Shown: positions 29,485-45,650 of the stretch, piece after piece
Layout of the letters: each line of letters starts with the position of its first letter
Position numbering within the stretch: position 1 is the first letter of the stretch
Assembly: GCA_050246315.1 (NCBI GenBank)
Contig: JBFWWG010000014.1
Span: 30,911 to 94,910, forward strand
Reading direction: 5' to 3'
Source of the DNA: Nitrospiraceae bacterium
Lineage (GTDB): Bacteria > Nitrospirota > Nitrospiria > Nitrospirales > Nitrospiraceae
Length of the DNA: 64,000 nucleotides
Position numbers and translations under genes: made by a program
The notes under the pieces: generated by a model
What the model was told of the DNA's origin: nothing
The model's input: the letters and a program-made list of their open reading frames with translations, nothing else
Database searches by the model: none

Positions 29485-30084
29485 TCAGGCGTTGAGGCAG
29501 GTTTCCACGGCCGTTTTGGCTCCGGTCATGAGCGACATGCCGTCACCGACGAGGATCGTCTCAAATTGGTACTTCAACAGACGCCGCAATCCCTCTTTCG
29601 CCAAATTGGGATCGGCATATTTCTCGGTCGGAAGCATGGATAACGACCCGGGCGGCCTCCCAATCAAGGCATCGCCGACGATCATGATCCCCGCGTGCTG
29701 TTGAATAAACAGAGCGCACTCCCCGGGGGATTTCTGATCCCGAAGATGCACGGCCCAGATGCCTCCCGGCAAGAGCTCGCCGTCTTTGTATGTCCGAGTC
29801 GGTGTCACATCCATCTGAGACGCATCGAGTTCCGGCACATACAAATGGCATTGCCAGTCCCTCTGGTAAGCCACGGCCTCGCGAAGATGGTCGCGGTTGG
29901 TCACGACGATGTAGTCGATTCGGCCACCGCGCCGCACTTGGCCGCCCTCCTCAGGAGCGAGAGGAGGCGGATCCACCACAACACGATGTTCTCCGACAGC
30001 GAGCAGCAGGCCGTTGAAATCGAGCTGCTTCTCCGGCGAAAACCAGGACCACTGCCACACGTTCGGAAGAATCGGTTTCAACAT
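29485..30084 (-). CDS. MBL-fold hydrolase-like protein
   Basis: VVVDPP, IVVTNRDH, SPGE, IVGDAL and ILVGDG (atypical metal ligands). Confidence 0.75.
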   Translation of the reverse strand: MLKPILPNVWQWSWFSPEKQLDFNGLLLAVGEHRVVVDPPPLAPEEGGQVRRGGRIDYIVVTNRDHLREAVAYQRDWQCHLYVPELDASQMDVTPTRTYKDGELLPGGIWAVHLRDQKSPGECALFIQQHAGIMIVGDALIGRPPGSLSMLPTEKYADPNLAKEGLRRLLKYQFETILVGDGMSLMTGAKTAVETCLNA

Positions 30085-30101
30085 GGCATGATGTCGGTCG
30101 C

Positions 30102-30344
30102 TTACCCCAGTGTGGCCACGGCGTCCCGCACCATCTTCGTCACCTTGGCGCGGATGTCCTGTTCCGCTGCCAGATCGATGATGTCGTCCTCCGGCACCGT
30201 GATGAATTTGCGCGAAGTTCCCTTGGTGAGAGAGATCAAGAACAGGCTGTTTGACGAAGTCGTCGGAATCACAACCTGAACCCCCGCATCGACATCCCGC
30301 ACAAGCTCAAGAAACTGTTGTTTCCCCTCATCCATCTCGCTCAT
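30102..30344 (-). CDS. Hypothetical protein
   Basis: 80 aa from ATG 30344 after AAAGGA; within the operon. Confidence 0.7.
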   Translation of the reverse strand: MSEMDEGKQQFLELVRDVDAGVQVVIPTTSSNSLFLISLTKGTSRKFITVPEDDIIDLAAEQDIRAKVTKMVRDAVATLG

Positions 30345-30390
30345 GCAGTTCCTTTCGCTCCGGTCGGTCGAGGGTACCTCACCACGATAC

Positions 30391-30918
30391 TCAGACTCCA
30401 CCACCGGCCAACAGCTTCTCGACCTCCTGGAGAATCACATCGGCGCCGGCCAAATCCATATTTCCCACACGTTGCCAGCGAATCACTCCTTGCGGATCAA
30501 TGACGTAAACGTTGGGGATGAACTTGCCTCCCCCGTACAGCTTGTCCGTGACCTTCTTGGGATCGAGCAAATAGGGGTAGGTGACCTTGACAGGAAACTG
30601 GGTCAGGAACTCCGCCACATCATTCTTGGAGTTTCCCGAGGAGTTCACCCCGATCACGGCGACGTTCTTGCCATTGGTCGCCTCATGGACCTTCTGTAGA
30701 TTCGTGCCCTGCATCAAGCAGGGTTCGCAGATATGAAACAGACCCAGCACGACGACTTTTCCCTTGAGCGCATCCAAACTCACCGCCTCGCCAGTGATCG
30801 AGGTAAGTGAAAACGCCGGGGCCTTCTCGCCGACCTTGAACAATCCGGCGGCTAACAACGGATGCGCGGCAACGATCGAGAATAGAACCACGCTCAGTAT
30901 GAGGGCGATACGTCTCAT
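30391..30918 (-). CDS. Secreted redoxin (TlpA/AhpC-TSA family)
   Basis: Signal peptide, VGEKAPAFSL, CEPC motif, YVIDPQGVIR. Confidence 0.88.
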   Translation of the reverse strand: MRRIALILSVVLFSIVAAHPLLAAGLFKVGEKAPAFSLTSITGEAVSLDALKGKVVVLGLFHICEPCLMQGTNLQKVHEATNGKNVAVIGVNSSGNSKNDVAEFLTQFPVKVTYPYLLDPKKVTDKLYGGGKFIPNVYVIDPQGVIRWQRVGNMDLAGADVILQEVEKLLAGGGV

Positions 30919-31098
30919 GGCAGCCTCCGATCTGAAGAAGTGATGAGTTCTGCAGGCTGGAGCCTTCCAACTCAACACTCACACCTCCACGCTCGGCACT
31001 CCGATGAGGGCTATCCTACCATGCAGTTTTTTTCCGGAGCAATGGCGACAGGGCGGGGCGGAGCAGGCGCTGCCGCAAGAAAAGGGAATGATCGGTTA

Positions 31099-32373
31099 TC
31101 AGTCGGCTTGTATCCATCGTCCGATCGCACGACGGACGGCTGGTAGCGGCATGCACGTGCAGATCACGGCTCGCAGGAATCGAATTGCTCGGTTCAGCCG
31201 CCGCAAGTGCGGCTTCCAGCGAAACCACGAAGGTGGTCGGGCAACAACTGGATGATCAGCATGGCACAGCGCCAATCCATACCGCCACCGATCCCACCAA
31301 TCGTCCTTCAGTGTGAAATAGAGCGCCGCTCCATCGTGCTCATCAATACCGTGTTGTGTCTGGGCCAGCAGACTCTTCGGCATGCGTTCCGCCAACTCCG
31401 GGATTTCAAATTCCGAAGAGACTGCGCTCACAATTTCGGATGGCAGGGAGATGCTCATCACCCGATGAGCAAGACTCAACCCAAGCAGAAGCATCCTGCG
31501 ACAGTTCCACTTCTCTGCCGTGGCGAAGACGCGCGCCCAATCCAATCGTTTCGCGCGGACCAGTTCGGCAACGTCAACGATCCACTTGAGACGCTCCCAG
31601 GCATGCTTCGAACCATGCACGCACAAAATATTCAACAATTCCTCAGGGGCGAGGGTCTCAACCTGTTGACCATCGATCGGGACGCGAATACGCCGATCCC
31701 ATACATCCGCCCGGTCCAGACGAAATGAAAAGTGTTGGTGTGCCATGACCCATTGCAAATCGACGAGTATGCGGCTCTTTTCGCCCAAAAACAGATGATA
31801 CGGCTGATCAAAGTCTGACACCTGACATTCGTCTTGCGAGGGATTCAGTGGGCGGTACCCCTGCGACAGCAAGACATCTCTGGCATCCGACAACCGGGAC
31901 TGCGGCACGATAAAATCCAGATCATCGAAGTCCCTCAGATTCCTATCCTCGTAGGCCATGATTCCCAAGGTCACGCCTTTGAAAGACACGACCGGCACCC
32001 CACTCTCGTTAAAGGCTCGGCAGAGTCGCACCAGCTCTTGCGCCAACACGCGATTCAACAGCGTGCCCACCAAAGTGGACCGGCGCAGCGCACCGAGCGA
32101 CGCCTGGGGTACCAGGTCGTCGCAGACCGTACCGATCGTCCGAGACACCAGCGGTCCTACCCCGTGGTAGCGGGCGAGATCCAGCACGAACGGCCAGTCC
32201 ATCGGCTGTTGCGCCGCTTCTCGGATACGACGCCCCACCGCCTCACTCACGGTCGTACGTGCGCACAAGATGACGAACCGGGCTTCCGGAAACCATGTCG
32301 GCGGCAGACGGGTTCCCTTGTCGAATATCGGGACCTCGCTAGGCATGACCGACATGGCTTGTGCGCGCATCAT
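31099..32373 (-). CDS. Nucleotidyltransferase (NTP_transf_5-like, lasso-cluster type)
   Basis: FKG..L....Y....LRDFDDLDFIV, VDLQW, LCVHGSKHAWERLKWIVDV motifs. Confidence 0.85.
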   Translation of the reverse strand: MMRAQAMSVMPSEVPIFDKGTRLPPTWFPEARFVILCARTTVSEAVGRRIREAAQQPMDWPFVLDLARYHGVGPLVSRTIGTVCDDLVPQASLGALRRSTLVGTLLNRVLAQELVRLCRAFNESGVPVVSFKGVTLGIMAYEDRNLRDFDDLDFIVPQSRLSDARDVLLSQGYRPLNPSQDECQVSDFDQPYHLFLGEKSRILVDLQWVMAHQHFSFRLDRADVWDRRIRVPIDGQQVETLAPEELLNILCVHGSKHAWERLKWIVDVAELVRAKRLDWARVFATAEKWNCRRMLLLGLSLAHRVMSISLPSEIVSAVSSEFEIPELAERMPKSLLAQTQHGIDEHDGAALYFTLKDDWWDRWRYGLALCHADHPVVARPPSWFRWKPHLRRLNRAIRFLRAVICTCMPLPAVRRAIGRWIQAD

Positions 32374-33407
32374 CCTTTCCTTTCGAGCGGCATCGTGACG
32401 GCTCCGAAGGCTTCCACGAAAGGACGGAAATACAGGTGGCTCACCTTCCTGAACTCACGAGCCACAGGTTCCTGCAGCCCGACTCGAAGAGGTTCCCGGA
32501 CTTGGGGTACGTACAGGGTCCCGAACAACACATCCCACACGGCCAGTTTGACGCCAAAATTCCTGTTCACGTGTTGAGGATCGACACTGTGGTGGATCTG
32601 ATGCATGACGGGACTGATAAACAAGCGGCTGACGACGGGGCCAAACGACACCCAGAGGTGTGAGTGATGCCAATGATGACCCAAGAATCCCAGTGCAAAG
32701 GTGATCACGCTGATGCCGAAGACCATGGTCAATTCCATGTCGTGGGGGACGAGGTTTTGGGAGAAGACGGAGGCCATCCCGAGGAACGGAGCCTGCAAGA
32801 CGGCCGGCAGCAGGAGTTCCACCGGATGCGCCCGATAGGCGGTGATGGGAGTCAACACTTCGGCCGAGTGATGCACTCGGTGGAACGCCCATAGCACGGG
32901 AATCTTGTGAAACAAGACATGTGTCAGATAGTTCACGAGATCGTAGACGACAAAGAACCCCGCCGCGACGGCAAACAGCGCAGTGGGCGGCAGGGTTCGG
33001 GGAGGTTCCCATGCGAAGTACCCGATCATCACAGCCGTCATCGCTTTGTAGCCGACCATGCCGACCCCGCCCATGACAGGGATGAGGAGCAAATACTTCA
33101 GGAACACGTTCACCACATAGAACTTGTAATCGAGGACAGCCGATGGGTGACCATACACGTGGCGCGGAAAGAGAAAACCCCCGAACGACTGAGACGGCGC
33201 GATGTTCTTCATTCTCGCCAGGATAAACGTCATACCTCCGATCAACAGACTCGCGAGCAGATACGGCCACGCCATCCCGCTTTCCAGATCCGTAAACGTC
33301 CCGGCGACCTTTCCGATTGCGGCGGTCACGCTATCCCAAGATCGGAACGAGGACAGCGAGTACTCCGATGTCTTCTGTACGACCCAAAGGGCCCATTCGA
33401 TGAGCAT
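32370..33407 (-). CDS. Sterol desaturase/fatty acid hydroxylase family membrane di-iron enzyme
   Basis: His boxes HVLFH, HRVHHS, HHSH and HQIHHS; NFG...WD.LFGT. Confidence 0.9.
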   Translation of the reverse strand: MLIEWALWVVQKTSEYSLSSFRSWDSVTAAIGKVAGTFTDLESGMAWPYLLASLLIGGMTFILARMKNIAPSQSFGGFLFPRHVYGHPSAVLDYKFYVVNVFLKYLLLIPVMGGVGMVGYKAMTAVMIGYFAWEPPRTLPPTALFAVAAGFFVVYDLVNYLTHVLFHKIPVLWAFHRVHHSAEVLTPITAYRAHPVELLLPAVLQAPFLGMASVFSQNLVPHDMELTMVFGISVITFALGFLGHHWHHSHLWVSFGPVVSRLFISPVMHQIHHSVDPQHVNRNFGVKLAVWDVLFGTLYVPQVREPLRVGLQEPVAREFRKVSHLYFRPFVEAFGAVTMPLERKG

Positions 33408-33413
33408 GGTTCA

Positions 33414-34448
33414 CTACGCGCTCCTACGCATTTCCAACAGCGGCGTGATCAATTTCGGCAGGTCGAGAATATCCCTCCCGAAATGGAGACGATAGCAATC
33501 CACTTGTCGTACCAGCTTGGACAGCGCCTGGAACTCTTGTCGTGCGACGGTCTGATCGTACACCAGCAGGCCCTGCGGCATGATGGCTTCCAGGGCGCGA
33601 CTCTTGCTCACAAGCTCAAGGGAGCTGTGCGGAATATCCATCACCTGCGGAAAGACGATCATGGCGGGGATGCAGGCATTTCCCAGGGATCCCGGATAGA
33701 GGTCCTCAGGTTGGAAAAACTTCTTGCAGATCCCCTGTTGCAGGAGACCTGGTGCGGCGTTCCGCAATTCAGGGAAAAAGTCAACGCTGCGATCGGTCAC
33801 ATCGATCTTCATGGGGAATGCGAGCAATTCCATGTGCGTTCCGCGATCGCGAAGAAGCGGATAGTCGTCGGACAGATAGCGGAATCCGGCGCGCAGCAGC
33901 GAGAGAAACGCCGTCGTTTTTCCCTGACCGCTGTAGCCGGGAATCAAGACGCCGCGTCCACAGTATTCCAGAGCGGTCGCATGGACGGTGAAGAGATCTC
34001 TCCGCTTGAGCAGTTCCGTCAAGGCGAAGTGAAAAAAACTCGTACAGACGTCCGGATGCATGGCATCGGGATTGATGAGGTAGCCCTCTGCCACTCCTTG
34101 TGTTCCGTCGATGACCAGCACCCCCTGTTCGTGGAAATTGGCGATGAGACGCGGCCCATCCTGTTTTACCTCGCAGCGCCAGATCGACCGCAACGAATCG
34201 CCCATGGCCGGCCTTGTTCCCGAAAACAGCGTTTTCGCGGAATCAGGGATCTTCACGGGCACAGCCGCACGACCGGCCACCTCCTCAAAGCGAATCGTCA
34301 GAGTCGGCTTTCCGGTTAGGGCATCCGCACGAAAATGACGGAGAAACCCGAGCACCGGCGCCACCATTGTGGCAATTGATGTTTGGTAGCGAAGTCCCAC
34401 GCCGTGTACGGAAAAGAGATACCCTCGCATCGCTCTCTCTTGGCTCAT
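33414..34448 (-). CDS. HPr-kinase-like P-loop kinase (lasso-cluster type)
   Basis: VHATALEYCGRGVLIPGYSGQGKTT...GFRYLSDD. Confidence 0.8.
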   Translation of the reverse strand: MSQERAMRGYLFSVHGVGLRYQTSIATMVAPVLGFLRHFRADALTGKPTLTIRFEEVAGRAAVPVKIPDSAKTLFSGTRPAMGDSLRSIWRCEVKQDGPRLIANFHEQGVLVIDGTQGVAEGYLINPDAMHPDVCTSFFHFALTELLKRRDLFTVHATALEYCGRGVLIPGYSGQGKTTAFLSLLRAGFRYLSDDYPLLRDRGTHMELLAFPMKIDVTDRSVDFFPELRNAAPGLLQQGICKKFFQPEDLYPGSLGNACIPAMIVFPQVMDIPHSSLELVSKSRALEAIMPQGLLVYDQTVARQEFQALSKLVRQVDCYRLHFGRDILDLPKLITPLLEMRRSA

Positions 34449-34491
34449 TTCCAGCCTCATGTCGTCAAGACACGGTCACCATCCCAGCGAC

Positions 34492-34523
34492 CGGCTGACC
34501 GGTCCAAAGGAACCGGCCAGCCG
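34492..34523 (-). terminator. Stem-loop just downstream of the precursor peptide gene
   Basis: 12-bp stem cggctggccggt/accggtcagccg with one G-U pair on the minus strand; no long U tract, so more likely a stabiliser or attenuator. Confidence 0.55.
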
Positions 34524-34554
34524 TGCGACTAAGCACGCTCAACCCAGGTCCGGC

Positions 34555-34689
34555 TCAACTCTCGCTGCCGGCCTTGTCGTTGACCTTGTCGCTCGTCTTT
34601 TCTCGATACTTCTGCCCGGTAATGTCGCGCAGCAATTCGTGCGTCATCAGCACGGGCTCCGCATAGGATTCTTTCTGCTGTGACTCCAT
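34555..34689 (-). CDS. RiPP precursor peptide, 44 aa: MESQQKESYAEPVLMTHELLRDITG-QKYREKTSDKVNDKAGSES
   Basis: Manual translation (below the ORF-track cutoff). Strong AAGGAGGTG RBS, YxxPxL leader motif, Thr at -2, directly after the RRE gene. Confidence 0.88.
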   Translation of the reverse strand: MESQQKESYAEPVLMTHELLRDITGQKYREKTSDKVNDKAGSES

Positions 34690-34695
34690 CCTGCC

Positions 34696-35154
34696 TCACC
34701 TCCTTTCCAACGTTAAGAGTCCCTCATGGCCCAGTTGGATCACGAGGGCGAACAGGTCGTCGGCGATTCGTTCCGCCGACGCCTCGAATCGGTTGCAAAG
34801 CGCGACATGAATCTGGTGTAACGATTGCAAACCGGTACACTGGTCCCAAATCGCGCTTCCAACTCGATTGAGTGTGTAATAGCGACCCGTACTGAGATTG
34901 AGCAGCACGGTCTCACCGTCCAAACTCGTCCCCTGCACGTCGGGATTTGGCTGGGGGATGGTTTGCATCAATTGCTGGCGCTGGCCATGGCTCCCTCGTT
35001 CGACCTGCCGCCGTTCCTCCTCGCTCAATACCGCCATGGCCGCCTCGGCTAACTGTTCCGTCGTGGCACGACCGTTGATCGCAGGTTGATCGTGGTCTGA
35101 TTGCACCGTGAGATCCGGCCTCAACTCGGCTGTAATAAACGGCTGTCGACTCAT
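34696..35154 (-). CDS. PqqD-family RiPP recognition element (B1-like) with N-terminal extension
   Basis: LDGETVLLNLSTGRYYTLNRVGSAIW...F.....I..DL..LV.QL..EGLL; AAGGAGG RBS. Confidence 0.92.
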   Translation of the reverse strand: MSRQPFITAELRPDLTVQSDHDQPAINGRATTEQLAEAAMAVLSEEERRQVERGSHGQRQQLMQTIPQPNPDVQGTSLDGETVLLNLSTGRYYTLNRVGSAIWDQCTGLQSLHQIHVALCNRFEASAERIADDLFALVIQLGHEGLLTLERR

Positions 35155-35195
35155 GATCGCAATCCCTCCTTTTGCACCTCGTGCGCATCCCATCG

Positions 35196-36095
35196 TCACG
35201 CTCTCCCCGCACAGAGTAGGTCGGCCAGGGCATCGCCGATTCGCTGGCCCGTGTGGTTTTCGAAAAACGTAAACCCAGGGCTTGTATTGACCTCGAAACA
35301 GTAATAGGCCCCGTCCGGTGTCCGGCGCAGGTCGATCCCGCTGAGACTCAATCCGAGACTCTTCGCCAAATGGAGACAACGAGTCTGCAGGTCCTGATCC
35401 AAATCGACCGCCCGCATGCTCCGCTGTTTGTTGTCACGCTCGACATAGCGATAGTCCGTGCCGTCCGACCGGACTTCGGTTGCAAAAAGTCGATCGCCCA
35501 CCGTATGGACGCGCAGATCGACTCCTGGAATCATTTCTTGGAGCTGCACGGGGCAGTAGCGGATCTGCTCTAATCGGTGGAAATCATCCGGTGTCAGCGG
35601 TTTGACGATGGACCGTTCCGCACTGATCGACTTGTACACCACGCGCCCATCGCACGACTCGTAAAAGGCACGGGCTTCCTCCGGCACCATCGTCACCAGG
35701 GTGTTGGGGACCCGAAACCCGTGCTGTGCGATCAGCCGCTGCTGGTGCGGCTTCGACATATTCGTGTGCGACGCCTGCCGGCGATTGACGACCAGCATGG
35801 GCAGGCTCTCAACGAGTTCCCAGAGAGACGCTGACGCCATACGTTCTCTCGTCGTCGAGACGGCACGACTCGCCATCGCCCGCAGGTAGACGGAAGCGAG
35901 ATCGGCCACGTGAATCACTCGGCTTTCAATCCGAAGACGATCTTGGACGATGCCCGTTTCCGTGGACCATGCGACGTCCCAATCCATCCAATCCGACTCG
36001 GGATGGACGAGCATGAGTTCCGCGTTCCGGGCCGCGAGCCTAGCGCAGACGTTCGCGAGCACCGGATCGGCCATCGGCCCCACTAAGAGAATCAT
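35196..36095 (-). CDS. ATP-grasp ligase (RimK/MvdD-like)
   Basis: NMSKPHQ, GFRVPNTLVT, VVYKSIS, LQEMIPGVDLRVH, DYRY, GIDL and YCFEVNTSPGF motifs. Confidence 0.9.
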   Translation of the reverse strand: MILLVGPMADPVLANVCARLAARNAELMLVHPESDWMDWDVAWSTETGIVQDRLRIESRVIHVADLASVYLRAMASRAVSTTRERMASASLWELVESLPMLVVNRRQASHTNMSKPHQQRLIAQHGFRVPNTLVTMVPEEARAFYESCDGRVVYKSISAERSIVKPLTPDDFHRLEQIRYCPVQLQEMIPGVDLRVHTVGDRLFATEVRSDGTDYRYVERDNKQRSMRAVDLDQDLQTRCLHLAKSLGLSLSGIDLRRTPDGAYYCFEVNTSPGFTFFENHTGQRIGDALADLLCAGRA

Positions 36096-37059
36096 GAAAC
36101 GTAAGACTCCTCATCTCGGACAGGTAGCCAACCAGCCGACGAACGATTTCCTGCTGCAACTCCTGCGGACAATGCCAATAGCTGGGCCTTGGACTGACAT
36201 CGAGACAATAGACGGCGCCTTCAGCCGTCAGAACGCATTGGCACTCCGCAAAGGACAGTCCAAGCCGGCGAACCAGATCGAGGCATGGCCGGTTGAGGAG
36301 GGACGGAACCTCGGTCTCCGTTCCTTGCCGTTCATTGCATCGCACCACGGACGCCGCCACATCGTGCCCCGCGACATACACCGTCATTCGCCGTCCGTCC
36401 GGAACCGCTTGCATCGAGATGGCACTCGTCTCCATGACTCGACGGATCTGTTCGATGCCGCCCTGAGCGGAGAGATACAACCCTGGCTCCTCCGACCCTA
36501 GCCGTTTCACATAGACCCGCTCTCGCCAAGTCGAAAACTGCAAAGTGGCATCAGCCGGATTGGACGTGCACCGAGAGGACGGAAGGCGAATGCCCTGTTC
36601 TTCGGCGAGTCGGCTCAGGAACGGACTTCCTGACAAGACCACAGGACGGCCGCCGAGAACGGGACGATTGACCACCGCGCAGGGCAAGGCATTCAGAATG
36701 GCCAACCATGCGGCCGTGGATTCTTTGACGACGTAATCCCGATCTTCTGGAGAAAGCTCACCGAGTTGGAGGGGGAGCGGCAGCGTCAGGCGAGAAAAGA
36801 CTCCGGTGAGATCACTGAGCGGAATGATTGTATCGTCGATCGCCAGCGAGCCGCGCACGATTACCGATTCGGCCTCAACCGGCCAGTTCAGCACCACTCG
36901 ATCCAACAGGTGCGCAGGCTCGACCCAACGGACCTCCGCGCCGCTTCGCCGCGCTTCTCGATAGATCAGGATCGCCCAGGGATCGGTGGAATCGGCAAGA
37001 ATCAGAATCACGGGGTGTGACCCTTCTCCGACACACTTCACGAGCAGGTCTTTCGACAC
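36040..37059 (-). CDS. Divergent ATP-grasp-fold protein
   Basis: Colinear with the neighbouring ligase (LPCAVVNR, GIRLP, VYVK, LGLSFA) but with YCLDVSPRP in place of YCFEVNTSP. Confidence 0.7.
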   Translation of the reverse strand: MSKDLLVKCVGEGSHPVILILADSTDPWAILIYREARRSGAEVRWVEPAHLLDRVVLNWPVEAESVIVRGSLAIDDTIIPLSDLTGVFSRLTLPLPLQLGELSPEDRDYVVKESTAAWLAILNALPCAVVNRPVLGGRPVVLSGSPFLSRLAEEQGIRLPSSRCTSNPADATLQFSTWRERVYVKRLGSEEPGLYLSAQGGIEQIRRVMETSAISMQAVPDGRRMTVYVAGHDVAASVVRCNERQGTETEVPSLLNRPCLDLVRRLGLSFAECQCVLTAEGAVYCLDVSPRPSYWHCPQELQQEIVRRLVGYLSEMRSLTFHDSLSGADGRSGARERLR

Positions 37060-37434
37060 TGCCCCCCAAGAGACTGCACCATGATTGATGTGCTGGAGAG
37101 TAATTGGGCCGTGAGCCCCTGCCTAGTTCACTAGAAGGAGGACCAGCCCCTACTTTATGCGGTTCTTCAGGCTTTTGTGTGGGGAGCGGGGATAGCCCTT
37201 ATCGCCTCGGCTGACGAAGGCCGGGCGCCTCCGGGCCTTGCCCGGATGCGATGGTGTCGCCGCCCTCTTCTCATGTCGTCCTGGTGGTCGCCGCGCCGCT
37301 GAGGCCGCGCCGGAGCGCGAAGCCGGCGCGGCGACCCCCGAGCCCGGCACCTGACTGGCTTGCGCCCGCCCGGGCCGCGGCCCTCCGCGCGCCGCCCTCC
37401 CAGCCTCGCCGCACGCCTGTCCCGGGGAGCAGAG

Positions 37435-37617
37435 CGAGGGAGGCCCGGTCGCATTGCCGGAGGATCGGGGCCCCACCGAGGGCACGGCAGGAAGGAAAGC
37501 TGGACCTGGCCGATGCCCCACGGTCGCCAGACCGTGGCGGAGCGAATTCCAGAAGGGTTCCGCCTGCGGAGCCCCGGAAGGGTCGATCCGGGAGGTGCGA
37601 GAGCGGGCATCCCCTCG
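37435..37617 (-). ncRNA. Rod-like structured element, copy A (unknown family)
   Basis: Long imperfect inverted repeat; core 37456-37595 is homologous to 45425-45545 with compensatory changes. Confidence 0.55.
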
Positions 37618-37768
37618 TCCGCGCCGAGGGTGTGAGTTTTACAAGCAACCCACCCGATTTCCGGAAGAGCCCTTTATGCTATAGGTGCGATGAGGCCGCA
37701 CACGAAAGCGGACCGCTGGTTGGGCACTGACAGGCAGACGAGTTGAAAGCTTCCGATCGGAGGCGAGG

Positions 37769-39637
37769 TTAAACGGCCTGCTGATAGTGCTGAGCCTGGG
37801 TCAGGAAGAGCGTGGCGTACAATCCGCGCTGACGTAGGAGGTCGTCGTGAGTGCCTTGCTCGACGATCTGCCCCTGCTCCACGACATAGATCCGGTCGGC
37901 CATCTTGACCGTCGAGAGTCGATGACTGATCAGAATCGCCATTCGGCCCTTGGCCAATTCGTGAAACCGCTCGAACAGCTCTGCCTCCGCCTTGGCATCC
38001 ATGGCGCTGGTTGGCTCATCAAGAATCAGGATCTGCGAGTCCCGCAGCACGGCTCTGGCGAGGGCCACTTTCTGCCATTCGCCGATGCTCAATTCATGGC
38101 CGCCATCGAACAATTTGCCAAGCACCGAGTCATACTGCTGGGGCAGTCGTTCGATGGTCGCGTGAACCCCCGCTTGTTTGGCCGCTTGCGTCACGGCGGC
38201 AAGGTCTCCGCCGGCCGACGGCACGCCGAGAGCGATATTGTCTTTCGCCGACATCTGAAACTTGACGAAGTCTTGAAAGATCCCGCTGGCGGCGCCGCGC
38301 ACATCGCTGATCCGATAGTCGCGCAGATCCACCCCGTCGATCGTAATACGTCCGCCCGTGGGATCGTAGAGACGGCACAGCAACTTGACCAACGTGGTTT
38401 TGCCTGCGCCATTGGCTCCAACGAAGGCGACGTGCTCTCCAGGCTTGATCGCAAAGGTGAAATCGTGGATCGCGACGCGGGCCTCGTCGGGATAGCGAAA
38501 GGTGACGCGCTCGAAGGCGATGCCTTGAGTCATCGGCTTCGGGAACGGCTTCGGGTGCGCGGAAACCGGCAGACGAGACCGGATGCACAAGAATTCATCG
38601 AGCGTCGTGAGGAAAAGACTGCTCTCATAGAGACTCGAGACGCTCCAACCCAATCCCTCCAGGAATGCGGCCGCCCGTTGGATAGCTTGGAAATACATCA
38701 CGAGGTCTCCCACGGTCAGTACCCCGTGCACCGTACGCGCCGTCACCAAGCTATAGACTCCGAACACTCCAGCCACTCCCACAATCTGCGCCGCAAGACC
38801 GGCAAGTGCCCACCGCCGCTCCAGGGAGATGCGTTCCTTTCGCAGTAGCGCCCGCGTGTCCTGGAATGCCCGCCGCAGCCCAGCGCCCAGATCAAACAGC
38901 CGCACTTCCTTCGCCGCCGTGCCCTGTGTCAGGAGCCAATTGAGATACCAGGCTTTCCGTTCAAGCGGCGTTCGTTCACGCTCCCAGGCGAACAGACTAT
39001 TGGATTGTTGCAAACGAACCAAGAAGTACGGGGCGGCGGTCAGCACCAGGATCGGGATGACCGACCAATGCAGCCACCAGAGAATCGCGGCCATCGCCAA
39101 CAAGGAGATTCCGTCTTGCCCGAGCTGTAGGAGCGAGTTGAGGATCGCCGTCGGTCGGTGCGGCGCTTCCTGTTGCGCACGATGCAGCGTGTCTTGATAC
39201 CGGGCGTTCTCGTAGTACTCCAGGTCCACCTCAACAGACTTCGCCTGGAGGATCGCGTGCATGTGGTCCGTGACCACTTGTGCCTGAATGCGGGAAATCA
39301 GCGAGGCCACGACGGTGAGCAGCGCGCTCGCGACAGCGACGCCGGCCAGCATGCTGAGAATCATGGTAATCGAGGTCGGCATCGATCGGCTCGACGGTTC
39401 CGTGATTCCCTGCGTAACGGCATCAATCAGCAGCTTTGTCAAATAGAGCACCGCGAGAGGCAGGAGGCCCTGGACCACACGTACGGCGATACTACCCAGA
39501 GCCCATGTGGGACTGCTCTGCCAGACAAAAGAGAGCGCAAGGCGAAGGGTTGCGAGGAAGGGTCTCAGACGTTCCCAGGACTTGTACAACACAGACTTGG
39601 ACGCGGGCGGTTGCGACGATGGGCTCACGCTAGCCAT
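37769..39637 (-). CDS. ABC exporter (fused TMD and NBD)
   Basis: GANGAGKTT, LSIGEWQKVALAR, LILDEPT and ISHRLST motifs; no C39 peptidase domain. Confidence 0.93.
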   Translation of the reverse strand: MASVSPSSQPPASKSVLYKSWERLRPFLATLRLALSFVWQSSPTWALGSIAVRVVQGLLPLAVLYLTKLLIDAVTQGITEPSSRSMPTSITMILSMLAGVAVASALLTVVASLISRIQAQVVTDHMHAILQAKSVEVDLEYYENARYQDTLHRAQQEAPHRPTAILNSLLQLGQDGISLLAMAAILWWLHWSVIPILVLTAAPYFLVRLQQSNSLFAWERERTPLERKAWYLNWLLTQGTAAKEVRLFDLGAGLRRAFQDTRALLRKERISLERRWALAGLAAQIVGVAGVFGVYSLVTARTVHGVLTVGDLVMYFQAIQRAAAFLEGLGWSVSSLYESSLFLTTLDEFLCIRSRLPVSAHPKPFPKPMTQGIAFERVTFRYPDEARVAIHDFTFAIKPGEHVAFVGANGAGKTTLVKLLCRLYDPTGGRITIDGVDLRDYRISDVRGAASGIFQDFVKFQMSAKDNIALGVPSAGGDLAAVTQAAKQAGVHATIERLPQQYDSVLGKLFDGGHELSIGEWQKVALARAVLRDSQILILDEPTSAMDAKAEAELFERFHELAKGRMAILISHRLSTVKMADRIYVVEQGQIVEQGTHDDLLRQRGLYATLFLTQAQHYQQAV

Positions 39638-40079
39638 GAGCCGGTTTCTCGATTGCCTTCTCCCGGTAAGGATCGAACGGATAGGAAAAGGTCACGGTAT
39701 ATTGTTGCCATTGGCGTGAGGGCTCTTGAAACGGATGGCCATCGAGCGTGAGCCAGGCATGTCCGTCCAATGTTCCCTCCTCCCTCCTCACGCCGCAATG
39801 AAGTCGGACGGGTAACCCCGCTTGTCTGGCACCTCGATACAGGACCACGGAGCGAGGAAAACAACTGCCCTTCGTATTGTAGGGAAAGAGGAGGAGCCAA
39901 CGGTCGACGTAGTGGACAAGATCCTCGACCGGTGTGTGCGCGCCTTCCGTCAAACCGGGTTGAGGCTCCAACAGGCTCAGCACCGTTGGCAGACTCAGAA
40001 AGCGCAACAAGATCCGAACCCAAAGGACGAGCAGACCCACACGGCATACCGTCCAATACTTGGACACCCATCGCGTCAT
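39630..40079 (-). CDS. Lasso peptide B2-type leader peptidase (transglutaminase-like)
   Basis: SCFPRS..LY......G.PV.LHCGV......LDGHAWL (Cys/His catalytic residues). Confidence 0.9.
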   Translation of the reverse strand: MTRWVSKYWTVCRVGLLVLWVRILLRFLSLPTVLSLLEPQPGLTEGAHTPVEDLVHYVDRWLLLFPYNTKGSCFPRSVVLYRGARQAGLPVRLHCGVRREEGTLDGHAWLTLDGHPFQEPSRQWQQYTVTFSYPFDPYREKAIEKPAHG

Positions 40080-40156
40080 GGTTTGCTCAGTGTATCAAGC
40101 CACCATGGGAAATCCAGTTTTCGCGCGTTCTGTTAGGGGAATGACCGGGCCAGCGG

Positions 40157-41584
40157 CTAGGAGGATTCGAACAGCCCCAGCTGCATCTCTTCGGCTTTGG
40201 TGAAGGGAATCGGATAGCGGTCCGTGAAGCAGGCCGAACAGTACCGTTCCGCCGAGCCCGGCGCAGCCTTGAGCATTCCGTCCAAGCTCAAGTAGGCGAC
40301 ACTGTCGGCCGTCACATACTTGCGGATCTCTTCGACCGTGTGGCTGGAGCCGATCAGTTCTCGCTTGGTCGGCGTATCGATTCCATAGAAACAGGGCGCG
40401 ACAATCGGCGGCGAGCTGATCCGCATGTGGACTTCCTTCGCGCCGGCGCTCCGGAGCATCTTGACGATCTTGCGGCTGGTCGTCCCCCGGACGATGGAAT
40501 CATCCACGACGACTACGCGCTTTCCCTCCAACACCTCCGGAATGGCGTTGAGCTTCACCTTCACCCCGAAGTGCCGGATGGATTGTTCCGGCTCGATGAA
40601 CGTCCGTCCGACATAGTGGTTCCGCATCAGCCCGGTTTCGAACGGAACACCCGATCCTTCCGAATACCCGAGCGCGGCCGGCACGCCGGAATCCGGAACC
40701 GGTATCACCAGATCCGCCGCGACCCAGGCTTCCTGCGCCAGTTGCCGGCCGAGGGCCTTTCGTATCTGATAGACCGCATGCCCGCCCCCGAAAATCCTGC
40801 TGTCCGGCCTGGCGAAGTAGACGTATTCGAAGACACACATTGCCGAATTCGATGGGGCGAACGGACGATAGCTGGCGACCTTCTTCTCGTTGATCACAAC
40901 CAGTTCACCGGGCTCGATCTCCCGAACATACTCGGCGTCCAACAGATCGAAGGCGCAACTCTCGGAGGCCACGATCCAACTATCTCGTACCTGCCCCAAG
41001 CAGAGCGGCCGAAATCCGTGGGGATCGCGCACTGCCATCAACCCTTCGTCTGTCATGAGCACGAGCGAGTAGGCGCCCCGCACCTGGCTCAAGGCATCCA
41101 CCACTCGCGCGAGCAGCGTATCCGCCCGCGAATGGGCGATCAGGTGGATGATGACTTCCGTGTCGGAGGTGGATTGAAAGATCGCGCCGTAGGCCTCCAG
41201 CTCATTGCGCAACATCTGCGCGTTGATCAGATTGCCGTTGTGGGCAAGCGCCAGATTGCCCAGGGCGAAATTCACCGTGAGGGGCTGAACATTCTTGAAA
41301 TCGCTGCCGCCGGCAGTCGAGTACCGGTTGTGCCCGATCGCCACGTGGCCGGGAAGCTGAGCCAATACCGATTTGGAATAAATATCCGCGACGAGCCCCA
41401 TCCCCTTTTGCAGATAGAAATGCTGCCCGTCCGAGGACACGATGCCGGAGGCTTCCTGTCCACGATGTTGCAGTGCGTACAGCCCGAGATAGGCCAGATT
41501 GGACGCCTCGGGATGATTGAACACACCAATGACGGCGCACTCGTCGTGAAATTTGTCGGGCGTGACGATCGGTAAGTCTTTCAT
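40157..41584 (-). CDS. purF: Amidophosphoribosyltransferase
   Basis: [31 protein letters not shown] and CFYGIDTP motifs. Confidence 0.97.
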
Positions 41585-41585
41585 A

Positions 41586-43838
41586 TCACTGTGGGGCGAG
41601 CGCCCGTTCGACCGCATGGGCCCAGGCGTCATGCAACGCCTCGACCGGAAGATCGATCCGGCAAGGCACCGATGAATCGACCGGAAGCTCGATCACAAGG
41701 CGGTTGCCTCCGACCTTCCCGATCACGGCTGCCGGGACCCCGGCCTCCTCAGCGGTGTGCATCACGAGATCGCGATGCTCCGGCGTGACGGAGAGGACAA
41801 CACGAGACTGGCTCTCGCCGAACAATTGAGCGTCTCGTCTGATGAATTGGGAGCGAGGCAATTGTATCACAGCACCCAACCGAACCCCAGGGGAGGAAAT
41901 GCAGCACTCCGAGAGGGTCACGGCGAGACCTCCGTCCGAACAGTCGTGAGCGGACCGAATCAATCCCCCCCGAATCAACCCGAGCAGGCAAGTCTGCAGC
42001 GCCCGCTCCTTGTCGAGATGGAGCACAGGCGGGCTCCCCTGCTCACGCGCATGCGCCACTTTCAGATACTCGGTCCCTCCCAGGTCCTCGCCGGTCTCGC
42101 CGAGCAGAATGATGTCGTCGTCCACCTGCTTGAACCATTGCGTGACAGCCTGTTCAGCCCGGTCGATCAGCCCCACCATGCCGATCATGGGCGTCGGATA
42201 AATCGAGAGTCCGTTCGTTTCGTTGTAGAGGCTCACGTTGCCGCTGACCACCGGGACGTTGAATGCCTCGCAGGCGTCCTTGATGCCTTCGATACCGAGC
42301 ACCAACTGCCACATGATGTCCGGCCGCTCAGGGTTGCCGTAGTTCAAACAATCGGTGACGCCGATCGGTTCGGCCCCGGAACAGACGAGATTCCGCGCGC
42401 ACTCGGCTACGGCAATCTTCGCACCTTCATAGGGATTCAGCACGCAATAACGGCTGTTGCAGTCCACCGAGGCAGCCAGGGCCTTCTCCGTTCCCTTCAC
42501 CCTGACGACCGCCGCATCCGACCCGGGCCGCACCTGCGTGTTCGTCCGCACCATATGATCGTATTGTTCGTAGACCCAACGCTTGCTGGCGATGGTGGGC
42601 GAGGAGAGTAGGTCCAGCAGGACTTTGTTGGGATCGGTCACATCACGGATCGCATCCCAATTCACCATCTGGAGCATGTCCTGATAGGGAGGTTGGGCCC
42701 GAGGACGATCATAACGCGGCCCTTCGTCGGCCAGGGCCTTGGCGGGGATATCCGCCACGACCGTGTCGTTGTCCTTGACCACGACGCGCCCGCTGTCCGT
42801 TACCTTCCCGATCACCGCAACGTCCAATTCCCATTTCTTACAGATCCGGATGACATCGTCTTCGCGGCCAGCCTTGGCCACCATTAACATGCGCTCTTGC
42901 GATTCCGACAACATGATTTCGTAAGGCGTCATGCCAGGCTCACGGCGCGGAACATGGACCAGCTCGATCTCCACCCCGGTCCCCTCCCGCGACGCCATTT
43001 CGCAGGACGAGCTGGTGAGGCCCGCCGCCCCCATGTCCTGGATGCCCACCAAGAGGTCCTCGCCCATGATTTCCAGGCAAGCTTCAAGCAACAGCTTTTC
43101 GGTGAAGGGGTCACCCACCTGCACAGTGGGGCGCTTCTGCTGGGCCTGGTCGTCAAACGAGTCCGACGCCATTGTGGCGCCGTGAATGCCGTCCCGCCCG
43201 GTCTTCGATCCGACGTAGATCAACGGATTGCCGACGCCGGCCGCCTTGCCGAGAAAGATCCGATCTTTTCGAGCGATCCCCAGGCAGAACACGTTGACGA
43301 GCGGATTGAGCGTGTAGATGTCGTTGAAGACCACCTCGCCGCCCACCGTCGGCACGCCCATACAATTACCGTATCCTGCGATCCCTGAAACGACCCCCTT
43401 CAGGAGGTGACGATTCTTCGAATTGTCCAATCCCCCGAACCGCAGCGAATCCAACAGGGCGACCGGCCTCGCACCCATCGTAAAGATGTCGCGCAGGATG
43501 CCGCCCACCCCTGTCGCAGCCCCCTGATACGGTTCGATAAAGGAGGGATGGTTGTGCGACTCCATCTTGAAGACCGCGCAGAGCCCGTCGCCAATATCCA
43601 CCGCACCGGCGTTCTCCCCGGGTCCTTGCACCACCCGCGGTCCCGTCGTGGGGAGCTTCTTCAGATGGATGCGCGAGCTCTTGTACGAGCAATGTTCCGA
43701 CCACATGGCCGAGAACATGCCGAGCTCGGTGAGATTCGGCTCCCGTCCGAGGATCTCGACGATCTTCTTGTACTCCTCCTCCGTCAGCTTATGCTGCACG
43801 AGAAGGTCTTTGGTGATACTCGGCGTATCCGTTTTCAT
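41586..43838 (-). CDS. purL: FGAM synthase subunit PurL
   Basis: [17 protein letters not shown] and DMGAAGL motifs. Confidence 0.97.
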
Positions 43839-44277: not shown

Positions 44278-45378
44278 CTACTGGTCCAGCTTTGCTTCAA
44301 TTATCGGCACAACTCGAATGCAGAAGGATTCCAGCTTTTCAAAAGTAGAAATCATGTCGTTCAATCCCTTGACCAATTCTCGAGTGGAGACATTCAAATC
44401 CCTACTGATGCTTTGATTTCTCAAAGCAAGGGCGGCATCCCTCATAGCAGCGACTCCCGCGATCCCTTTCTTGATTCCATCGGCTAGAACAGTCATCACT
44501 TCCTTCAGATTTCCTAATTGCGCACGATGTTGGTCGACACTGGGTTGCATCCAGGTCACATATTGCGGGAAAGCATCTGTCAGAATCTCAACTTGTTTAT
44601 CTAGCGATGGGAGTTTATCGAGAATCCTCGAAGTAAGAACCTTCATATCCTTCGAGGCTGTCAATGCAACTTTATGCGCTTGAGCCGCAGTACCAGGGTT
44701 CGGATTAGATGTTAGAGCTTGGATCCGATTCCCATTCTCAGTGAGTCGCCTATTATAATCACTAACACCTTGGACCATATCGCCGAGGAATTTGGTTATT
44801 TCCTCACCAGCAGCATTGATACCCACTATCCAGTCGAGAAACCCGGTTTCCTCCTCGGTCAACGTCCCATGGAGTCGCTGCGCTGCCTGTGCATCTTGGG
44901 AAACTGGGACCTGAGCCCCTTGCGCAGTAGCAACTTGCAGAAAATCCGTTACAGGGCTTTCAAACGCTATCGCCTGTCTCTGATGTCTCTCACCTATTTC
45001 CCTTAACGCATCTTTGAGCTTGTGGACCTCGTCATATTGCGTGGAATAGCTAATGACTCTATAGGACCGAAGATCGAACGGAACCTCTTCCATGGACTGC
45101 GCAATCAGCACAGTCGGTATGCGAAGTCCATGACAGAGGCCCAACTCATAGAAAACATTTGGATTTACAGCTGTGAGATCTGCTACCACCAACCTAGCTT
45201 CTGAAATCCCTCTTACAACGTCTCGTAATATGTTCCTCTGATCCATGAAACTATCTGCGCGTTCTACCTCGTATCCTGCACTTTCCAGAGCTGGCTTAAT
45301 CAAGTCTTCATAGATTCGTTTGAACTCTTGATGGAATGGCATTAATACAAATGCCCTGGGAGTTGAACCCTCTGGCAT
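44278..45378 (-). CDS. Nucleoside 2-deoxyribosyltransferase/TIR-like domain plus helical C-terminus
   Basis: AFVLMPF...Y..LIKPAL...RAD...LVVADLT..NPNVFYELG...VPFDL; low GC; AAAGGAGG RBS. Confidence 0.8.
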   Translation of the reverse strand: MPEGSTPRAFVLMPFHQEFKRIYEDLIKPALESAGYEVERADSFMDQRNILRDVVRGISEARLVVADLTAVNPNVFYELGLCHGLRIPTVLIAQSMEEVPFDLRSYRVISYSTQYDEVHKLKDALREIGERHQRQAIAFESPVTDFLQVATAQGAQVPVSQDAQAAQRLHGTLTEEETGFLDWIVGINAAGEEITKFLGDMVQGVSDYNRRLTENGNRIQALTSNPNPGTAAQAHKVALTASKDMKVLTSRILDKLPSLDKQVEILTDAFPQYVTWMQPSVDQHRAQLGNLKEVMTVLADGIKKGIAGVAAMRDAALALRNQSISRDLNVSTRELVKGLNDMISTFEKLESFCIRVVPIIEAKLDQ

Positions 45379-45396
45379 ACTGCTACCTCCTTTCCA

Positions 45397-45573: not shown

Positions 45574-45650
45574 ATCTTTTCCGTGACAAAGTGCGCAATG
45601 GGTACCCGCCAAGGCGTGAAAGCCATCGGCCACGTCCTTACTCCTGCCTT

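Follow-up and report, generated by a model that had tools for sequence, protein, structure and literature searches.

The window analysed here, a stretch of 64,000 nucleotides from a Nitrospiraceae bacterium, holds a gene cluster in which the leader-handling machinery of lasso peptides stands beside two ATP-grasp proteins and no lasso cyclase. The question raised by this locus is what chemistry closes the product, and how an enzyme of one peptide class would be brought to a precursor with the leader of another. The reading that we favor, with moderate confidence, is that a graspetide pathway is run here on lasso-peptide logistics by way of an adaptor RRE.

The gene order proposed in the earlier note was confirmed by the open reading frames of the window and by profile searches: nine genes follow purF (40157-41632), all of them real and co-oriented on the minus strand, with motifs intact in all but ATP-grasp 1. 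The first encodes a lasso-type B2 leader peptidase, a transglutaminase-like cysteine protease (39630..40079; PF13471, E 7e-19), which at 46.5 bits lies above the NF033537 cut-off of 33, is the genome's single PF13471 gene, and keeps Cys73 in 36/36 and His107 and Glu119 each in 35/36 aligned homologues. It is followed by an ABC exporter (37769..39637; PF00664 and PF00005) in which Pfam profiles found no C39 peptidase domain; some related clusters (for example, L026, L036, L135, and L146) have no exporter gene. Beyond a gap lie ATP-grasp 1 (36040..37059), a divergent protein with no Pfam match and a TIGR04187 match at E 5.5e-12, and ATP-grasp 2 (35196..36095; RimK, E 1.6e-10; TIGR04187, E 3e-38, below its cut-off), whose reading frames overlap. 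The RRE gene (34696..35154; PF05402, E 1.9e-15; NF033536, E 1.7e-12, below cut-off) has an ATG start and a GGAGG ribosome site and encodes a PqqD/B1 protein of 152 residues, including an N-terminal extension of ~70 residues that was missing from the earlier account. Next come the 44-residue precursor (34555..34689), recognized by its sequence, AGGAGG ribosome site, and homologues; an HPr-kinase-like, lasso-type peptide kinase (33414..34460; PF07475, E 2e-6; TIGR04352, E 3e-15); an enzyme of the membrane di-iron hydroxylase/desaturase family (FA_hydroxylase, 32370..33407; PF04116, E 2e-23); and a PsmN/BsfN-like nucleotidyltransferase (NTP_transf_5, 31099..32373; PF14907, E 1e-57).

The bulk of the gap is a noncoding miniature mobile element of 512 bp (37161..37672), with terminal inverted repeats of ~11 bp and a 7-bp target duplication, and it stands outside the pathway. 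Near-full copies occur in six other places at 89-97% identity, eight left and nine right ends are present across the genome, and among the related loci the element was found only in L007, whose ATP-grasp 2 is 96% identical to that of the window. Neither the element nor any other part of 30000-41000 matched Rfam. A lost gene was considered as the source of the gap and rejected, as a six-frame check found no remnant of a nucleotidyltransferase, kinase, hydroxylase, or RRE, and the score for B2 was insignificant (E 0.05). A scan of promoters and terminators gave one promoter-like match versus 2.5 expected and 11 terminator-like matches versus 7.3 expected. Eight RNA-library runs contained at least half of the words of 34400-36100, and contigs from four runs spanned stretches of it, among them 34592-34933, where the precursor lies, although such contigs can neither show transcription nor rank genes; run X6 resembles DNA.

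Because the ATP-grasp-RRE core recurs in Nitrospira, which accounts for 22 of 26 genome loci, the arrangement is not due to chance. When RRE loci were viewed with wide flanks (n = 27), B2 was present in 26, the kinase in 27, the hydroxylase in 24, the nucleotidyltransferase in 26, and a cyclase in none; all five were absent from the RRE-free loci (n = 19). The hydroxylase was exchanged for a pair of GMC oxidoreductases in L051, L138, and L142. Co-occurrence of homologues of 35196-36095 with B2 and RRE, and without a cyclase, had been put forward in the earlier note as a check and was what we observed: a phmmer search with one cyclase query, supplemented in 27 loci by looking through the long frames left unexplained, found a lasso cyclase in 0 of 119 distinct related loci. 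The statement that no asparagine-synthetase-like cyclase lies nearby also stood, PF00733 having no match on the entire contig, and these counts together with the fold of ATP-grasp 2 support the proposal of an RRE- and B2-dependent, graspetide-like RiPP lacking a dedicated cyclase. The A2 profile collected 887 representatives at E 1e-30, a figure that includes active paralogues and is thus not the size of the family. A plasmid collection gave seven distant matches at 27-35% identity.

The two ATP-grasp proteins are related to each other (HHalign probability 100), and only one of them is predicted to be active. The model of ATP-grasp 2 (pLDDT 88.7) gave its best Foldseek matches with PsnB, AMdnB, MdnC, PruB, and CdnC (E 1e-24 to 2e-23; RimK/LysX, 1e-16), and its homologues keep K115, K155, Q186, R195, D214, and R216 in 51/51 and D255, E268, and N270 in 50/51. 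With catalytic residues and D-x-R loop intact, it is predicted to be an active graspetide synthetase of the RODEO group 39 clade, scoring under the cut-offs of TIGR04184/5/7. The model of ATP-grasp 1 shows a full-length fold (pLDDT 86.9; nearest structure, MdnC); the D-x-R loop or E-x-N was kept in 0/54 sequences and both in 0/146 independent representatives, and the only invariant columns are the Tyr and Glu of its conserved D-x2-Y-x3-E helix (ORF residues 106-113). We predict that it is a catalytically dead partner subunit with a graspetide-synthetase fold. The comparison with microviridin MvdC/D in the earlier note therefore does not extend to a pair in which both ligases are active; the core differs from TxKxPSD, and scores with the microviridin profiles TIGR04184/5 were far below cut-off. 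ATP-grasp 1 and 2 are fused in 5 of 7 long homologues, some of which could be assembly frameshifts given the overlap of the two genes. Residue loss, adjacency, fusions, and modeling suggest that the dead ATP-grasp 1 and the active ATP-grasp 2 would form a heterodimeric synthetase.

The precursor leader has the spacing of canonical lasso leaders, with Y(-17), P(-14), L(-12), and T(-2) provided by Y9, P12, L14, and T24 ahead of G25, and from this spacing cleavage by B2 after Gly25 is predicted, as the earlier note had supposed. The core of 19 residues contains three K-x-x-D/E units (K2-E5, K6-D9, and K10-D13) and one K-x3-E unit (K14-E18), so that the precursor adjoining the synthetase bears the patterned Lys/Ser/Thr donors and Asp/Glu acceptors of a graspetide. 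Among 72 cores, a lysine with Asp or Glu at +3 was observed 150 times versus 36.6 in shuffles; for 24 cores paired with untagged RREs the figure was 2 versus 3.0 expected. The unit is absent from 7/72 cores, spacings of -1, +7, and +8 are also enriched in short cores, and the repeat precursors of relatives have a period of 3 (K-D-x or E-K-x), the ring register not being constant across the family. Because tandem K-x-x-D/E cores match the lactams of the myxomiditides, in which ATP-grasps make K1-E4 and K5-E8 (Li et al. 2026, PMC12848669), side-chain stapling appears to fit better than a lasso ring, and the operon probably staples a small peptide by way of lysine-to-acid rings. On the basis of spacing and this precedent, ATP-grasp 2 would form Lys-to-Asp/Glu lactams, likeliest at K2-E5, K6-D9, and K10-D13, and perhaps at K14-E18.

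It is unlikely, in our judgment, that the pair instead activates Asp or Glu for RimK-like tailing with an amino acid or free amine, or for linkage to a lysine of another chain, yielding branched or cross-linked products. RimK is the Pfam match of ATP-grasp 2, but structure and the D-Y-R loop place this protein with the macrocyclases and not with RimK/LysX; precursor types do differ in repeat period, but the constant K-x-x-D/E spacing is that expected of rings and not of tailing, and no C-terminal acid is conserved among the cores. Inter-chain cross-links are plausible in the RRE-free relatives, where long K/D repeats with a coiled-coil-like final segment, tagged proteases, and phage-tail-like proteins adjoin the pair.

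Lysine-to-acid stapling by this pair leaves the question of how the synthetase would recognize a precursor with a lasso-type leader. Sequence comparison showed that the RRE begins with a tag, PFI-x3-L-RPDL (residues 4-15, P-F-I-x3-L-R-P-D-L; 35110..35145, minus strand), which is new here. In a graspetide the Phh-type recognition sequence is expected in the leader of the precursor itself; in this locus the tag is on the RRE, and in RRE-free relatives the same tag heads K/D-repeat precursors or closes cargo proteins beside the ATP-grasp pair, making three placements known around one pair: RRE, repeat precursor, and cargo protein. In cargo-type loci, M6 and S8 peptidases bear the tag at the C-terminus. 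The tag adjoins the pair in 56/61 loci and was not found in the other 5/61, versus 1/61 on the opposite strand, and in RRE-free loci only the figures are 21/26 versus 1/26, counts that come from many close kin and are not independent events, and for which the tag pattern and distance windows were chosen after the data were seen. With a held-out matrix from 19 RRE-free precursor leaders, the RRE tag ranked first of 6.12 million genome positions (32.6 versus 21.9). Each of the 54 RRE loci has one tagged RRE; no tag was found in the RREs of the upstream Cys-peptide modules (n = 23, one cut by a contig end). Where the RRE is joined to ATP-grasp 2 (P0099, P0108, and P0111), the tag is retained in the linker of all three fusions; untethered RREs have none. 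A rapid IQ-TREE analysis with 64 rows gave SH-aLRT values of 97, 96, and 69 for the repeat-type, cargo-type, and RRE-type clades, the branching order not being fixed.

In the model of the complex, the tag docked across both ATP-grasps, contacting residues 154-183 of ATP-grasp 2 and the D-Y-E helix of ATP-grasp 1, with a score of 0.74 versus 0.00 for the best of three controls, one of which had ATP-grasp 1 replaced (0.00). The mark used was passed by 116/157 solved pairs and by 2/215 mismatched pairs. Runs shared at least 40% of contacts with partner pLDDT of 46-48, and the pass may reflect memory of the solved MdnC/PsnB/CdnC leader complexes, the tag's own fold being uncertain (pLDDT < 50). 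From its association with the pair and the modeled binding, the synthetase would recognize a short portable tag, F-I-x4-R-P-D/E-L. The RRE thus appears to be an adaptor that carries the synthetase's docking signal and delivers the peptide to it: its domain would bind the YxxPxL leader, as is established for lasso peptides, and its tag would occupy the leader site of the synthetase, activating the enzyme and tethering the core, so that the graspetide signal acts in trans. No description of a tag-bearing adaptor RRE was found in the literature searched; the word "grasp" does not occur in a survey of daptide RREs, and in a structure-based survey of RREs ATP-grasp appears solely as a filter.

An improbable alternative is that the tag merely activates the synthetase or is vestigial, the precursor arriving unaided and the RRE serving only B2 and the kinase. 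Leaders supplied in trans can switch on RiPP enzymes without tethering (PMC13003496), and the linker that separates the tag from the RRE domain varies. Retention of a tagged RRE in 54/54 RRE loci and in the fusions speaks against a vestige, and the cores paired with untagged RREs do not show the K-x-x-D/E pattern.

A B1 RRE, a B2 protease, and a leader with YxxPxL and T(-2), all features of a lasso pathway, are present here. The earlier note held that ATP-grasp chemistry replaces lasso cyclization; this was right in that no cyclase is in the cluster, but the ring predicted is not the same one. Taken literally, after B2 cleavage an ATP-grasp would form a lariat or lasso-like ring between Asp9 and the amine of the newly exposed N-terminus. 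B2 would liberate an N-terminus, the window's core does have Asp9, and an acid occurs at position 9 in 34/72 cores and at 7-9 in 42/72, but an acid every fourth residue makes a match at 7-9 expected by chance, and 30/72 cores have none there. The K-Y-x-E-K motif is also offset by three residues relative to the cleavage site in L051, L138, and L142, Gln is the commonest first residue (27/72), and the same enzyme pair occurs in relatives without B2, and we regard this ring as very unlikely.

A genome-wide search for Asn-synthase genes, as suggested in the earlier note, found none in the cluster but did find a probable lasso cyclase in a separate cluster on another contig (G000 C2:500819-502702), the best lasso-cyclase-like gene, which at 373 + 89 bits stays under the NF033535 cut-off of 525. 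A true lasso peptide closed by this C2 gene in trans, with the ATP-grasps tailoring or unrelated, is highly improbable: the C2 cluster lacks B2 and the genome's sole B2 is in the window, but the gene comes with its own RRE and precursor, five 99%-complete genomes bearing the ATP-grasp-RRE cluster have no orthologue of it (best identity, 28-38%) and nothing above the NF033535 cut-off, none of their PqqD matches has an Asn-synthase match in its vicinity, and in G136 the sole PqqD and the sole B2 both lie inside the cluster.

Returning to the stapling pathway, the remaining genes would tailor and release the lactam peptide. Among 59 kinase homologues, 57-59 retain the His, the Asp-Asp, and the P-loop Lys. 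Core residue 3 is Ser or Tyr in 61/72 cores (Tyr in 37/72), with a C-terminal Ser in 7/72, and we hypothesize that the kinase acts on core residue 3, Tyr in the window's core; the nucleotidyltransferase may then decorate the phosphate. BsfK acts on core residue 3, and its S3Y variant substrate is not phosphorylated (PMC10368454). In sequence the kinase context resembles the bsf type more than paeninodin, where the site is a C-terminal Ser; the earlier note had assigned B1/B2, kinase, and nucleotidyltransferase to the paeninodin/pseudomycoidin architecture. The di-iron enzyme, whose His boxes are kept in 42-45 of 45 and whose OlsE match (E 3e-17) is weak and far below cut-off, may hydroxylate or desaturate the product at some site. 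On lasso precedent, RRE and B2 would cleave after Gly25 and the ABC transporter would export the 19-mer.

A broader reading, which we offer tentatively and hold to be somewhat short of an even chance, is that the dead/active pair is a general, tag-directed module for writing isopeptides, a tag of ~12 residues selecting K/D-repeat precursors, folded proteins, or, by way of a tagged RRE, whichever peptides have a lasso-type leader that matches it. Tagged folded proteins include M6 and S8 peptidases, a lectin, and phage-tail-associated proteins, among them a second locus in this genome. If that is so, the window would hold the first natural example in which an RRE bears a leader mimic that recruits a RiPP enzyme, and the product would be a multi-lactam peptide, possibly phosphotyrosine-nucleotidylated. 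The adaptor reading, if true, would mean that two RiPP classes were joined by grafting a recognition sequence onto the binding protein of the other class, not by an enzyme swap, and portable tag and RRE adaptor would provide a handle for placing multiple lactam staples on chosen peptides.

The earlier note allowed for a prior listing in a genome-mining survey, and the gene family is in fact already listed, uncharacterized, as RODEO graspetide group 39. The supplement of Carter et al. (2026, PMC13097080) has at least 31 group-39 rows, including Nitrospira precursors of the window's type, one of which differs from the window's by a single residue; most rows give two adjacent synthetases, and hosts include the cultured Nitrospira japonica and Nostoc sp. 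UCD121. Its main text notes a transglutaminase-fold protein in groups 33 and 39 and nothing further on group 39, and the available parts of that account mention no lasso-type leader, no dead partner, and no tag on the RRE; our reading predicts that dead partner and tagged RRE are both needed to reconstitute the group. As proposed here, the rosaritide and corallotide synthetases of that study depend on a partner protein; corallotide receives KxxxD lactams followed by Lys hydroxylation, and MirC contains a domain that weakly resembles an RRE. The partner there is either SurA-like or a 2OG oxygenase, whereas here the partners would be a pseudo-ATP-grasp and a tagged RRE, and the oxidase belongs to the membrane di-iron enzymes. 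The myxomiditide enzymes MyxF/MyxD1/MyxD2 are alike in making tandem K-x-x-E lactams with cooperating ATP-grasp paralogues, but they act on a microviridin precursor with its own PFF-type leader, the available text of PMC12848669 mentions neither RRE nor B2, and MyxD2 is catalytic but without the residues for leader binding, whereas in ATP-grasp 1 it is the catalytic residues that are missing.

The phosphorylated lasso clusters bsf (PMC10368454) and pseudomycoidin/paeninodin (PMC9266682) share with the window discrete B1 and B2, an HPr-type kinase, a nucleotidyltransferase, an ABC exporter, and the YxxPxL and T(-2) leader; the window's family differs in having no cyclase C, in often missing the acid at 7-9, and in having Tyr3 in 37/72 cores. 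Makarova et al. (2022, PMC8939145) describe their ATP-grasp branch 8 as loci where an inactive, truncated ATP-grasp occurs with unrelated peptidases and no precursor was found; this description matches our cargo-type loci with their C-terminally tagged M6/S8 peptidases, but ATP-grasp 1 in the window has a full-length fold, and "Nitrospira" is absent from the supplements as searched (32/48 branch 8 member rows). If our reading is correct, it would offer an answer to the puzzle of an inactive-partner synthetase branch with no recognizable precursor, since the substrate may be the adjoining tagged protein. Finally, Johnson et al. (2026, PMC13003496) report in the available text that the graspetide recognition sequence is movable, engineered graspetide leaders functioning as followers as well as in cis or in trans, and cite leaders fused to the enzyme or supplied in trans; their chimeras were engineered and used a lasso cyclase, whereas the arrangement that we propose is a natural one, with the tag on the RRE.

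The nine minus-strand genes lay in the order given by the earlier note, the first of them 78 bases after purF. The precursor (34555-34689) carried Tyr9, Pro12, Leu14, Thr24, and Gly25 at lasso positions −17, −14, −12, −2, and −1, and the core following Gly25 was QKYREKTSDKVNDKAGSES. In local alignments of each, the catalytic motifs of the lasso-type leader peptidase B2 (39630..40079), the kinase, the hydroxylase, and the nucleotidyltransferase were intact and conserved. Most of the gap between the ABC exporter and ATP-grasp 1 was taken up by a repeated element of 512 bp whose ends are inverted; this miniature mobile element (37161-37672, just upstream of ATP-grasp 1) was present in about nine copies with 7-bp target duplications, has ends possibly similar to those of ISL3, and had no autonomous copy sharing those ends that we could see. 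Upstream of purL, the ORF 44278-45654 had a low GC content (about 50%), a long helical tail, and an N-terminal weak match that was nucleoside 2-deoxyribosyltransferase-like (E 0.02); it may be a sensor or defence gene gained by horizontal transfer.

The modelled fold of ATP-grasp 2 (35196..36095, minus strand; pLDDT 88.7) was nearest to those of the macrocyclases PsnB, AMdnB, MdnC, PruB, and CdnC, with RimK and LysX well behind; its ATP- and metal-binding residues and its D-Y-R loop were essentially invariant among 51 sequences, and it is predicted to be an active graspetide synthetase. The closest named relative was a Nitrospiraceae MAG (96% identity in ATP-grasp 2), and the family was patchy: of the phylum's 401 genomes, 17 matched the ATP-grasp 2 profile, this one included. 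ATP-grasp 1 (36040..37059, minus strand) had the same fold but lacked the first Lys, the loop, and E-x-N, and is predicted to be dead. None of 54 aligned homologues had a D-x-R-type loop or E-x-N, and among 146 representatives found independently none had both; the only invariant residues lay in a D-x2-Y-x3-E helix, a motif present in 123 of the 146. Five of seven long homologues were ATP-grasp 1-2 fusions, some of which may be assembly errors because the two genes overlap.

The RRE (34696-35154, minus strand) begins about 70 residues ahead of its PqqD domain, and near its N-terminus lies P-F-I-T-A-E-L-R-P-D-L, a tag whose motif was found beside this ATP-grasp pair in three placements. In type I, at loci without RRE or B2, the tag forms the N-terminal leader of precursors that consist of K-D-x or E-K-x repeats and are 140-230 residues long; in type II, it lies at the RRE N-terminus, as in the window, or in the linker of ATP-grasp 2-RRE fusions of Nostoc and Gloeotrichia; in type III, it forms the C-terminal end of a cargo protein whose gene immediately precedes the pair, the cargo being M6 and S8 peptidases, B-lectin, Kelch, and hydrolase proteins, and a DUF6519 protein. 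With a tag pattern and distance windows chosen after seeing the data, the tag was present in adjoining windows at 56 of 61 loci with enough flank and on the opposite strand at one of the 61 (RRE-free loci only, 21 of 26 and one of 26); the five tag-less loci included the four most distant ATP-grasps. A held-out matrix derived solely from 19 type I leaders ranked the window's RRE tag first of 6.12 million six-frame positions in the genome (score 32.6, next 21.9), and a second, derived from 12 type III tags, placed it first and the tag on another contig, C11, second. Among 79 RRE matches, 54 were tagged, one per RRE locus; the 25 untagged were 23 from an upstream module (one cut short), the second RRE of locus L074, and the RRE of a lasso-like cluster on contig C2. 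The three placements correspond to three ATP-grasp 2 clades in a tree that supports the type II clade weakly and sets the clades in no firm order.

Several observations adjoin these. The C11 tag belongs to the second dead/active pair of this genome (G000:C11:129400-134000; L134 5919-10529), which follows a phage-tail-like gene and, adjoining it, the 966-aa DUF6519 cargo with the tag at its end. A 1653-aa protein, P0126, joins IPT/TIG-domain cargo, tag, ATP-grasp 1, and ATP-grasp 2 in a single chain; represented by one sequence, it may reflect misassembly. RRE-free long-repeat precursors with a C-terminal coiled-coil-like segment occurred at L061, L066, L073, L089, L103, and other loci, and the one K-D-x/E-K-x repeat precursor tested had no Pfam match. 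The window's RRE has no lysine in 152 aa, which may be chance since close homologues have a few. The upstream module (L013 2657-6923, L019, L020, L023, L136, L150, L151) comprises untagged RREs, Cys-rich precursors with Ser3, and a second kinase and nucleotidyltransferase; two RRE-leader pairs differ at a few leader positions, no cross-linking enzyme was evident for it, and it apparently shares the cluster's one B2 and ABC exporter. It is lost in the window's lineage.

Among 72 distinct cores of the window's RRE type, Lys was followed by Asp or Glu at +3 in 150 instances versus 36.6 after shuffling. Spacings of −1, +7, and +8 were enriched as well, matching expectation for tandem units; related cores are not independent, so that the z-scores for spacing overstate significance. 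The 24 Cys-rich upstream-module cores, which have a different leader, gave no +3 excess (2 versus 3.0). In myxomiditide, ATP-grasps close two lactams, K1-E4 and K5-E8, within a KxxEKxxE stretch (PMC12848669), and we infer lactam formation, and the ring register, for the window's core. Beside the +3 excess and the macrocyclase fold, some other ligation chemistry by the pair seems unlikely. Extra precursors with K-x-x-D within Cys-x7-Cys (L009 5557, L013 14123, L016 13124, L024 10817) mostly sat just upstream of a copy of the hydroxylase gene.

Three control models, one of them with ATP-grasp 1 replaced, reached at most 0.00, whereas ATP-grasp 2 modelled jointly with ATP-grasp 1 and RRE residues 1-35 reached 0.74. 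The latter mark was attained by most solved complexes (116 of 157) and by few mismatched pairs (2 of 215), a rough guide for a three-chain job. The runs agreed in at least 40% of contacts, with a tag pLDDT of 46-48, and placed tag residues 3-14 against residues 154-183 of ATP-grasp 2 and against the D-Y-E helix that is the invariant part of ATP-grasp 1. In microviridin synthetases, it is the middle subdomain that binds the leader (PMC8939145); as leader-bound structures are solved for MdnC, PsnB, and CdnC, the model may partly reproduce them. The model supports binding of the tag across the ATP-grasp pair. We propose that the RRE binds the precursor leader and that the tagged RRE would both tether the precursor to the synthetase and activate the synthetase; the core would also be phosphorylated, cleaved off after Gly25, and then exported. 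This adaptor mechanism as a whole is probably correct, though with considerable room for doubt; a tag that activates the synthetase without tethering the precursor is quite improbable.

An acid at core positions 7-9 was absent in 30 of the 72 cores, which excludes a lasso ring as the common product of the family and speaks against the earlier note's idea that ATP-grasp chemistry replaces lasso cyclisation, taken as a common lasso ring; an N-terminal ring made by the ATP-grasp is very unlikely. That note had also seen no Asn-synthetase-like cyclase in the window, and rightly, PF00733 having no match on the window's contig. The genome-wide search was clean for this contig only: four strong PF00733 matches lay elsewhere, and one of them, the C2 gene, was the genome's top match to the lasso cyclase model, yet below its cut-off. 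It sits in the separate lasso-like cluster (G000:C2:500442-506300; L033 10400-16290) with an RRE, a Met-rich precursor, a PRMT-like methyltransferase, a kinase, and a nucleotidyltransferase. This cluster had no B2, and the window's B2, the only one in the genome, may therefore serve both. The expected co-occurrence held: a cyclase match was absent from all 119 distinct loci with ATP-grasp 2 (one phmmer query and inspection of long frames), and 26 of 27 wide-flank RRE loci had B2 (kinase 27, hydroxylase 24, nucleotidyltransferase 26). Five genomes of 99% completeness with the cluster each had one B2, located inside it, and no orthologue of the C2 cyclase-like gene; together with the cyclase-free loci, they argue that this gene would be dispensable for the window's pathway. 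A cyclase acting in trans, which the C2 model match and the lack of a C2 B2 would favour, is thus most improbable, the more so as the C2 cluster has its own RRE and precursor.

Core residue 3 was Ser in all 24 upstream-module cores, and Tyr in 37 and Ser in 24 of the other 72. BsfK, whose lasso cluster shares kinase and nucleotidyltransferase types with the window's, phosphorylates core Ser3 in a strictly position-dependent manner and refuses S3Y (PMC10368454). In a tally by hand, which left out loci without a full kinase or cores as well as L051 and L138, where the Tyr lies further in, a Tyr3 core accompanied 24 of the 28 kinases that share 69% identity or more with that of the window; eight Nitrospira loci with only kinases below 60% had none. 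This hints that the window's kinase may be Tyr-specific. PsmN puts a hexose or nucleotide on the phosphoserine of pseudomycoidin (PMC9266682). The isopeptide Lys of corallotide is hydroxylated, but by an enzyme class different from the window's hydroxylase (PMC13097080). At L051, L138, and L142, which lack exporter and hydroxylase, a GMC oxidoreductase and gluconate-dehydrogenase subunit 3 pair lies between B2 and the ATP-grasps. Protease inhibition is common among graspetides (PMC8939145); by analogy, we would guess the same role for this product.

The reserve that genome-mining surveys might list such a locus was justified: the family is RODEO group 39, to which the main text gives one sentence, on a transglutaminase-fold protein (PMC13097080). 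Makarova branch 8, described as having an inactive truncated ATP-grasp and peptidases and no precursor, probably corresponds to our type III loci, matched by description (PMC8939145). The literature searched, whose coverage leaves out most subscription journals, did not describe any RRE that bears a graspetide recognition sequence; engineered relocation of a leader was demonstrated by Johnson 2026 (PMC13003496). The locus is thus real, conserved, and catalogued, yet uncharacterised, and the adaptor mechanism, absent from the earlier reading, is specific and cheap to test. The window's cluster differs from lasso systems in having no cyclase and from the usual graspetide in carrying the recognition sequence on the RRE instead of the precursor; it would function like a graspetide pathway and is catalogued as such.
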